From: Anolis carolinensis
Taxonomy: Eukaryota
DNA: 64,000 nucleotides
Assembly: GCF_035594765.1 (NCBI RefSeq)
Contig: NC_085843.1
Span: 259,323,971 to 259,387,970, forward strand
Reading direction: 5' to 3'
Shown here: positions 38,498-39,442 of the stretch, piece after piece
How positions within the stretch are numbered: position 1 is the first letter of the stretch
Layout: each line of letters starts with the position of its first letter
Notes under the pieces: model-generated
Database searches by the model: none
Seen by the model: the letters and a program-made list of their open reading frames with translations, nothing else
Told to the model about the DNA's origin: nothing
Position numbers and translations under genes: made by a program

Positions 38498-39442
38498 TGT
38501 CAGGACCCAGGCTGCAGAGCACCAATAACCATACACAGAGGCCAGAATCTATCTAATATCTTTATTGAAGGAATATATAAAGTTAATAAAAACAAGTGTA
38601 GAAAATAGTCCAGAAGTAGACCTTTCAGGAAAGGGCAAAATTAGTCCAAAGAAGCAATGTCCAATATGAAATATTAAGGTCCAAAGTTGTAATCCAATAA
38701 CCGAAACACTCACTTTGCCAAGCAAAGTGAGGGGAGATGACAAGGTCCTTTAGTCCATGAAACTAGAGCGAGGCTAGGAAGCAACTTGATTCTTGGAAAA
38801 ACAAGGCTTGATTCAAGGCAACAAGAAAACGAGGAACAAGAACAAGATCCGTGGTAATTACTTGGCAAGGTCCGGGAAACAAGGCAAGGCTGAGTCCTGG
38901 AAAGCAAGGCAAGATCCGTGGAGCAAACAAGGCTGAAAACGAAGGCTTGGAATCAGGAACAAAGGCTTGGAAGCGGGAGTAGCTGTCCACACACGCTACT
39001 CCGGTAGCTGACGAATTGACTCCGCAAGATCCCTTTGTGGGTAAAACACCTAAATAGGGTCCCGTTTTCCCGCCAAAGAGCAGTTCTCTGGAGAACCAGA
39101 AACGAAAGCTATTCTCTGAGTCCAGATGCATGACTCCTTAAAGTTTCCCATGGAAAGCAGGCTTAATCAGCTGAATGCTTAGCAGCTATCCTAGCACTCC
39201 TGCGAGACGCCTGTTCGACTCCCCTCTGTTGTTTACAAAAATCATGGCGAGAAAACGGGGGAGATTTTGGCTCAGGGCTTGTTTGACAGACTTCTGGAAT
39301 ACAAACCTCCTGCAGGTGCAAAGGCTCCATTTCTGGCTGAGATAGTTCCTTTTCTGGCTGAAATGGTGGAAAACCCAAGTTTTCCTCTTCATCTGTCACA
39401 ACAGCACTAGGAACAGGACTACATGGCCCATGAACCATCACA
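38498..39442 (-). repeat. 3' LTR (945 bp)
   Basis: Copy of the 5' LTR, directly preceded on the minus strand by the PPT. Contains AATAAA (minus) at 38561-38566. Confidence 0.97.

Follow-up and report, generated by a model that had tools for sequence, protein, structure and literature searches.

The pol gene of a young retrotransposon of Anolis carolinensis continues past the chromodomain of its integrase and through the polypurine tract (PPT) into the 3′ LTR, where it encodes a tail with an acidic linker and a basic terminal block, the latter bearing a motif similar to the nucleosome-binding motif of HMGN proteins. The data suggest that the tail is a real and selected part of the protein, and that its RRS[A/L]RI motif is a putative tether of the integration complex to the acidic patch of nucleosomes, a reading to which we assign a probability of roughly 0.55. 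The element lies in a stretch of 64,000 nt that was analyzed as a whole (the window), and its features are as follows.

44856..44860 and 38493-38497, minus strand: upstream and downstream copies of the 5-bp target-site duplication, the same 5 bp at both ends
43911..44855, minus strand: 5′ LTR, 945 bp, in whose U3 the sequence encoding the tail is present a second time, upstream of the inferred transcript start
43899..43908, minus strand: self-priming primer-binding site, complementary to LTR position 418-427 (44438-44429 and 39025-39016)
42882..43874, minus strand: gag ORF, 330 aa stop to stop, with Retrotrans_gag and zf-CCHC
39163..42927, minus strand: pol ORF, 1254 aa, with protease, RT, RNase H, integrase, chromodomain and tail, overlapping the gag end in the -1 frame
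39739..40764, minus strand: integrase zinc-binding, core and SH3 domains (aa 722-1063)
39520..39666, minus strand: chromodomain of group I type (aa 1088-1136; PF00385, E 6.6e-9) with F1088, W1109 and F1112
39443..39465, minus strand: PPT, read through in the pol frame, directly before 39442
38498..39442, minus strand: 3′ LTR, 945 bp, with inferred U3 39442-39026, TATTTA at 39056-39051 and AATAAA at 38566-38561
39265..39442, minus strand: acidic, proline-rich linker (aa 1162-1221), net charge -9, varying in length in frame among family members
39166..39264, minus strand: basic terminal block (aa 1222-1254), net charge +4
39178..39204, minus strand: HMGN-like motif RRSARIAAK (aa 1242-1250)
39163..39165, minus strand: pol stop codon, LTR positions 278-280

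Judged by its sequence, the element is a young chromovirus of the Tf1/sushi type (Ty3/gypsy). The order protease, RT, RNase H and integrase is found together with LTRs, a target-site duplication and a PPT, the chromodomain is located at the integrase's C-terminus upstream of the PPT, and a self-priming site takes the place of a tRNA primer site, which is a feature of the Tf1/sushi group (PMC6317226, excerpt). The gag/pol layout, the domain order up to the chromodomain and the self-priming site are thus common to this element and to the vertebrate Tf1/sushi (V-clade) chromoviruses. The two LTRs are identical at 945 of 945 bases (5′ 44855-43911 versus 3′ 39442-38498), which together with the 5-bp duplication at both ends indicates a young insertion, and there are no further LTR copies in the window. 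The best protein matches were gene models from Anolis carolinensis, which fall into clusters with 94 and 366 members, while the nearest matches outside Anolis in the search with the pol protein were mostly fish elements. The pol of this copy has several private residue differences despite the identical LTRs, and a small in-frame deletion at aa ~1008 (window ~39900, minus strand), which immediately precedes the match to the integrase SH3 domain. The copy, though young, may be defective.

The pol ORF is a single stop-free frame (42927-39163, minus strand), of which 92 full codons are located inside the 3′ LTR before the stop at 39165-39163, in agreement with what an earlier note on this DNA had described. 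The acidic P/E-rich linker reported there was also recovered, with 13 prolines and 10 glutamates in 70 residues, a net charge of -9 over aa 1162-1221 and of +4 over the last 33 residues, and so was RRSARIAAK at 39204-39178 (SRRSARIAAK from 39207), which is followed by four residues and the stop. The 92 codons stayed open in 65 of 5000 dinucleotide shuffles. Among 200,000 shuffles each, the pattern RRS[AS]R[LIV], which was picked after the motif had been seen, arose in 3 for the 93-aa tail and in 40 for the last 33 residues. The claim that the tail is encoded in U3 is borne out by the self-priming site, because the 10 bases directly after the 5′ LTR (43908-43899) form the complement of the LTR at position 418 (39025 in the 3′ LTR), 31 bases after the TATTTA box at 39056, and this match, of a kind seen in 4 of 2000 shuffled LTRs, sets the inferred U3/R border at ~39025. 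The inferred transcript start is 138 bases past the pol stop codon. An in-frame ATG, flanked by G at both -3 and +4, is present in the first bases of the LTR (44855-44848 and 39442-39435, minus strand), and a solo LTR transcribed from outside could therefore yield the tail as a separate peptide of ~90 aa. Three Anolis gene models (P0050, P0086 and P0115) fuse the LTR tail sequence to other reading frames.

To see the tail across the family, 107 family protein ids were collected, and 61 of these proteins reach the PPT/LTR junction. The full tail was present in 54 of the 61, while the other seven end early or leave the frame; there is hence no family stop before the LTR, and the tail proved to be a family feature that is kept in frame. 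The family sequences are gene models of related copies which were partly found with the tail as a query, so that the share of full tails is biased upward and the 54 tails do not amount to 54 independent cases. The family-wide presence of the tail rules out an assembly artefact or a single-copy accident. The 54 tails are 93 aa (18 proteins), 98 aa (18), 86 aa (10), 88 aa (5), or 87, 92 and 95 aa (one each) in length, and nearly all of these differences fall in the linker, with the terminal block kept; in 51 of 54 tails, seven residues separate the end of the motif from the C-terminus. Such a tail is missing from six gene models (P0005, P0055, P0240 and P0348-P0350) that belong to a sister subfamily in Anolis, which reflects either loss or model error.

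The variation among copies points to selection on the reading frame of the tail. In contigs of four public runs, 9 of the 12 indels listed were found in the 263 non-coding bases after the stop, part of which is repetitive and indel-prone, and 3 in 738 coding bases; eight of the nine listed post-stop indels were not a multiple of three. All three coding indels map to 39211-39213. Among them, a 1-base deletion at 39211, just before the motif, reached ~2-8% of depth, and was offset by a 1-base insertion of equal depth in only two of the four runs. Considering the best-supported 40 of 148 variant places, 8 of 16 tail variants were synonymous, compared with 22-28% expected (p 0.012-0.049), including all eight variants at third positions, while 13 of 17 were synonymous in pol upstream of the LTR. 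The placement of indels and the comparison of synonymous shares in the tail and in upstream pol indicate that the tail is under coding constraint which is weaker than that on the folded domains.

These data bear on the explanation that the read-through is tolerated, with the conserved blocks being U3 promoter or att-site DNA and the protein a by-product. The stretch encoding the tail is indeed located in U3, within ~400 bases upstream of the inferred transcript start, and read-through into the LTR occurs in many chromoviruses (PMC3605345, excerpt). Additionally, the motif is one of three conserved blocks, and the LTR start and the DEEENLGF block are as invariant as the motif itself, so constraint at the DNA level is possible; the same holds for the observation that none of the best-supported 40 of 148 variant places falls in the motif codons. 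On the other hand, DNA-level constraint would not account well for linker length variants that keep both the frame and the terminal block, for an A/L switch in the middle of a conserved block, or for the synonymous share of about twice the expectation and the uniformly synonymous third-position changes seen at the best-supported 40 of 148 places. The concentration of frame-breaking indels after the stop argues in the same direction, although the region is partly repetitive and indel-prone. Overall, an origin of the tail as a by-product seems improbable, and selection on the protein remains the preferred reading.

To compare the motif with its surroundings, shared alternative states were counted per alignment column. 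Of 76 Anolis-type proteins, 19 without chromodomain match and junction and two without junction were set aside, which gave 55, and after leaving out five short models, four duplicates and P0049, which leaves the frame, 45 unique tails remained, with a lowest pairwise identity of 46% and a median of 66%. The eight motif columns had 0.25 shared alternative states per column, compared with 1.30 in the linker, 1.80 in the 10 residues before the motif and 2.00 in the 5 residues after it. The motif also required 6 parsimony steps, which was the lowest number among the ten least variable 8-residue windows. In the full set of 54 tails, RRS[A/L]RI was kept in 50, as RRSARIAA in 30, RRSLRIAA in 18 and RRSARITA in two, while the four exceptions were single copies changed at position 1, 2 or 3. 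Hence, the motif is conserved in the family, with far fewer changes than its flanks. Outside the 54, the last, anchor arginine is lost in P0115, an LTR copy that is embedded in the reading frame of a LINE.

The pattern of substitutions is also informative about a second explanation, which is that the basic end of the tail serves as a non-classical arginine-rich NLS or a general DNA/RNA-binding patch, to which the HMGN likeness is incidental. C-terminal NLSs are known in retrotransposon integrases (PMC3605345, excerpt), and five other squamate proteins keep an acidic linker and a basic end without the HMGN motif. No match to the classical NLS pattern K[KR]x[KR] or to a bipartite signal was found in aa 701-1254 in a search with the classical patterns only. 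This result cuts both ways, since the integrase may need another import signal, which the tail could supply, while the motif core is devoid of lysine and fits no classical NLS pattern. If charge were the selected property, exchanges of arginine to lysine should be tolerated, but none was found at the three motif arginines, while lysine at position 9 is replaced by arginine in 9 of 45 tails. Moreover, S3, I6 and A8 are conserved as strongly as the arginines. We therefore regard a role as an NLS or charge patch as rather unlikely, though it has to be taken seriously.

The conserved residues are those expected for an acidic-patch anchor. The motif contains the RRSxR core with arginines at positions 1, 2 and 5 and a hydrophobic residue at position 6, both in the window copy and in 50 of 54 tails. 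The earlier note had likened the motif to the invariant HMGN core RRSARLSA; the anchor arginines are present, but the exact core is absent, with RRSARIAA of the window copy identical to the HMGN2 and HMGN5 sequence at 6 of 8 positions. A closer match is the RRSARIAT sequence of yeast Dot5, which is identical at 7 of 8 positions, and the patch-contacting positions of RRSSRLTS from tardigrade Dsup are present in the Anolis motif as well. Both Dot5 and Dsup depart from exact RRSARLSA and yet bind nucleosomes, and R6, R7 and R10 of Dot5 are required for this binding, which is abolished by acidic-patch mutants (PMC13347269, excerpt). Cryo-EM showed acidic-patch contacts of R23 and R26 in HMGN2, and of R363, R364, S365 and R367 in Dsup (PMC12487698, excerpt). 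The conserved positions of the Anolis motif, which are arginines 1, 2 and 5 and serine 3, correspond to these HMGN2 and Dsup contacts, and by sequence comparison the motif carries the residues with which HMGN2, Dsup and Dot5 bind the acidic patch. All these motifs are in a low-complexity, likely flexible setting. The Anolis motif differs from those of HMGN, Dsup and Dot5 in its location on a retrotransposon integrase, with its lysine four residues before the C-terminus, and in position 4, which is A or S in those proteins, but L in a third of the Anolis tails (18 of 54).

Searches for more distant likeness gave limited information. The 92-aa tail had no Pfam match at E up to 1 that would place it in the HMGN (HMG14/17) family, the last 32 residues matched no PDB chain at E up to 10, and the ESM Atlas returned nothing for the tail. 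When a complex was predicted between the last 33 residues and a stand-in H2A-H2B pair, taken from a giant-virus contig and retaining the acidic-patch residues, the score was 0.03 compared with a mark of 0.34 in a run with no controls and no alignment, a result that counts neither for nor against the tether; AlphaFold 3 is reported to misplace HMGN2 itself (PMC12487698, excerpt). Near-canonical H2B and H2A are located side by side on the 911-kb IMG/VR contig L002 (1362-1889 and 2158-2562, minus strand), with acidic-patch residues intact, and adjoin an A32-like packaging ATPase (567-1316, minus strand).

Targeting peptides are present in the Ty5 and Ty1 integrases, and on this model the motif could be a short linear site at which a host protein other than a histone docks, or which it phosphorylates. 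A role of this kind agrees with the position of a short, conserved motif at the tip of a flexible integrase tail, the serine is present in 53 of 54 tails, and RRS followed by a hydrophobic residue presumably resembles the sites of basophilic kinases. The searches of ESM Atlas, PDB and Pfam with the tail gave no candidate partner. The serine is also part of the contact made by HMGN and Dsup, and its phosphorylation has been modelled to release HMGN2 from the acidic patch (PMC12487698, excerpt), so that the docking reading is compatible with an acidic-patch tether; as a separate explanation we give it little credence.

To find how far the motif extends beyond the family, other chromodomain proteins were searched. 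RRSxR was not found in the 170 residues after the chromodomain in any of 201 non-family proteins with one chromodomain motif, many of which are spliced or cut gene models and some of which are cellular chromodomain proteins. The caution in the earlier note that such motifs are common in retroelement tails is thus contradicted among the sampled chromodomain relatives, and RRSxR as a common chromovirus tail motif was rejected on this sample. In 260 non-family proteins (122,364 residues) RRS[AS]R[LIV] occurred 0 times and RRSxR[LIV] three times. Among the proteins sampled, no family other than this one from Anolis had the exact motif, and none of the sampled fish Tf1/sushi relatives had the 92-codon tail or RRSxR. 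A metagenome scan gave one weak locus among 154 candidates, with the chromodomain only.

The layout of the tail was found more widely than the motif. Four snake proteins, among them two from Crotalus and one from Vipera, and one protein from Rhineura have the junction, the acidic linker and the basic end without the motif, with net charges of -15 to -17 in the linker and +6 to +11 in the basic end. The snake tails (P0137, P0183, P0241 and P0347) are 105-109 aa long, alike among the four, and have an arginine-rich end. Their homology to the Anolis tail was not detectable, as a profile of the Anolis tails detected none of 137 such segments (best E 0.65). The squamate layout without the motif, together with the tailless sister models, suggests that the linker and basic-end layout is older than the motif or has arisen more than once, and that the HMGN-like sequence looks lineage-specific. 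The squamate basic ends without the motif count against the tether reading, because they fit a looser, charge-based role.

A different basic motif was observed in other relatives. An AT-hook-like [PR]RGRP sequence is located close after the chromodomain in 25 of the 201 non-family proteins, which are fish elements where the host is named, and our literature search found no paper on an AT-hook beside the chromodomain in a sushi-type integrase. In fish integrases (P0006-P0020 and others) a short tail with SPE[YF] at its end often comes after [PR]RGRP, and in the protein P0065 from the amphisbaenian Rhineura KRGRP is located close to the C-terminus.

Coding inside the 3′ LTR of chromoviruses is already known. 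In CRM group A plant chromoviruses the CR motif, a part of the integrase that putatively targets chromatin, is encoded in the 3′ LTR (PMC3059260, excerpt), and pol also extends into the 3′ LTR in the Bingo elements of Beta (PMC3605345, excerpt), while the excerpt of PMC3601003 contains nothing on LTR-coded tails. The pol frame enters the 3′ LTR in these plant elements as it does in the Anolis element, which belongs to the self-priming Tf1/sushi clade. In CRM group A the CR motif replaces the chromodomain, whereas the Anolis element keeps a standard chromodomain upstream of the PPT and adds the LTR-coded motif. This chromodomain is of group I, as its three aromatic-cage residues, F1088, W1109 and F1112, were identified from sequence and alignments. 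The intact cage is shared with the MAGGY type, and binding of H3K9me2/3 was shown for MAGGY only (PMC3350952, excerpt, which also defines the group). Acidic-patch anchors are likewise known from viruses. An arginine anchor of foamy virus Gag tethers the incoming complex to the acidic patch and shapes integration sites (bioRxiv 2025.01.10.632130; PMC9040877; excerpts). The anchor of prototype foamy virus is on Gag, and that of KSHV LANA, also an arginine-anchor peptide on the acidic patch, is on a latency protein rather than an integrase; neither is accompanied by a chromodomain. In a literature search which covered mostly titles and the starts of abstracts and few subscription papers, no HMGN-like or acidic-patch motif on a retrotransposon integrase was found, and the excerpt of the PMC13347269 supplement names neither integrase nor retrotransposon. 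Hence, with acidic-patch tethers and LTR-coded pol ends both known, the likely new part is the putative HMGN-like anchor on an integrase.

To our knowledge, the targeting and choice of chromatin by vertebrate Ty3/gypsy elements have been little studied. In the tether reading, the tail would stay on the mature integrase, and the RRS[A/L]RI motif would bind nucleosomes at the H2A-H2B acidic patch in the manner of the HMGN motif, with its last arginine as the anchor, equivalent to R26 of HMGN2 and R367 of Dsup. By analogy with MAGGY, the chromodomain would read methyl-lysine and provide a preference for methylated chromatin, while the motif, ~105 residues away, could grip the same or a neighbouring nucleosome. 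Because the acidic patch is present on every nucleosome, the motif would add general affinity rather than site choice. What the data show are the read-through, the family-wide open frame, the in-frame linker lengths, the conservation of the motif and the intact aromatic cage, from which we infer the rest. If the motif binds the patch, the HMGN motif, which has been tested in HMGN, Dsup and Dot5, would be extended to the enzyme of a mobile element, and this integrase would combine a reader of a histone mark with a nucleosome-surface anchor. The family provides a natural variant series, with three main linker lengths and A or L at position 4. More tentatively, the integrase may carry its own HMGN-type anchor and methyl-lysine reader as a bivalent device that acts without a host tether, and U3 may be an exchangeable cassette for lineage-specific motifs of HMG type, HMGN-like in Anolis and AT-hook-like in fish and Rhineura; we offer this as a possibility that is still somewhat doubtful.

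Two other observations were made in the course of this work. Several cellular proteins with multiple chromodomains (P0053, P0140, P0149 and P0150) have a basic motif followed by an aromatic residue near the C-terminus, and a parallel pairing of a chromodomain with a nucleosome-surface peptide is possible in them. Within the window, two families of short repeats, one at 17914-18207, 19959-20273, 25802-26115, 62019-62177 and 63767-63986, and another at 57147-57399 and 61698-61945, are present as dispersed copies that are ~63-93% alike, and both are probably SINEs.
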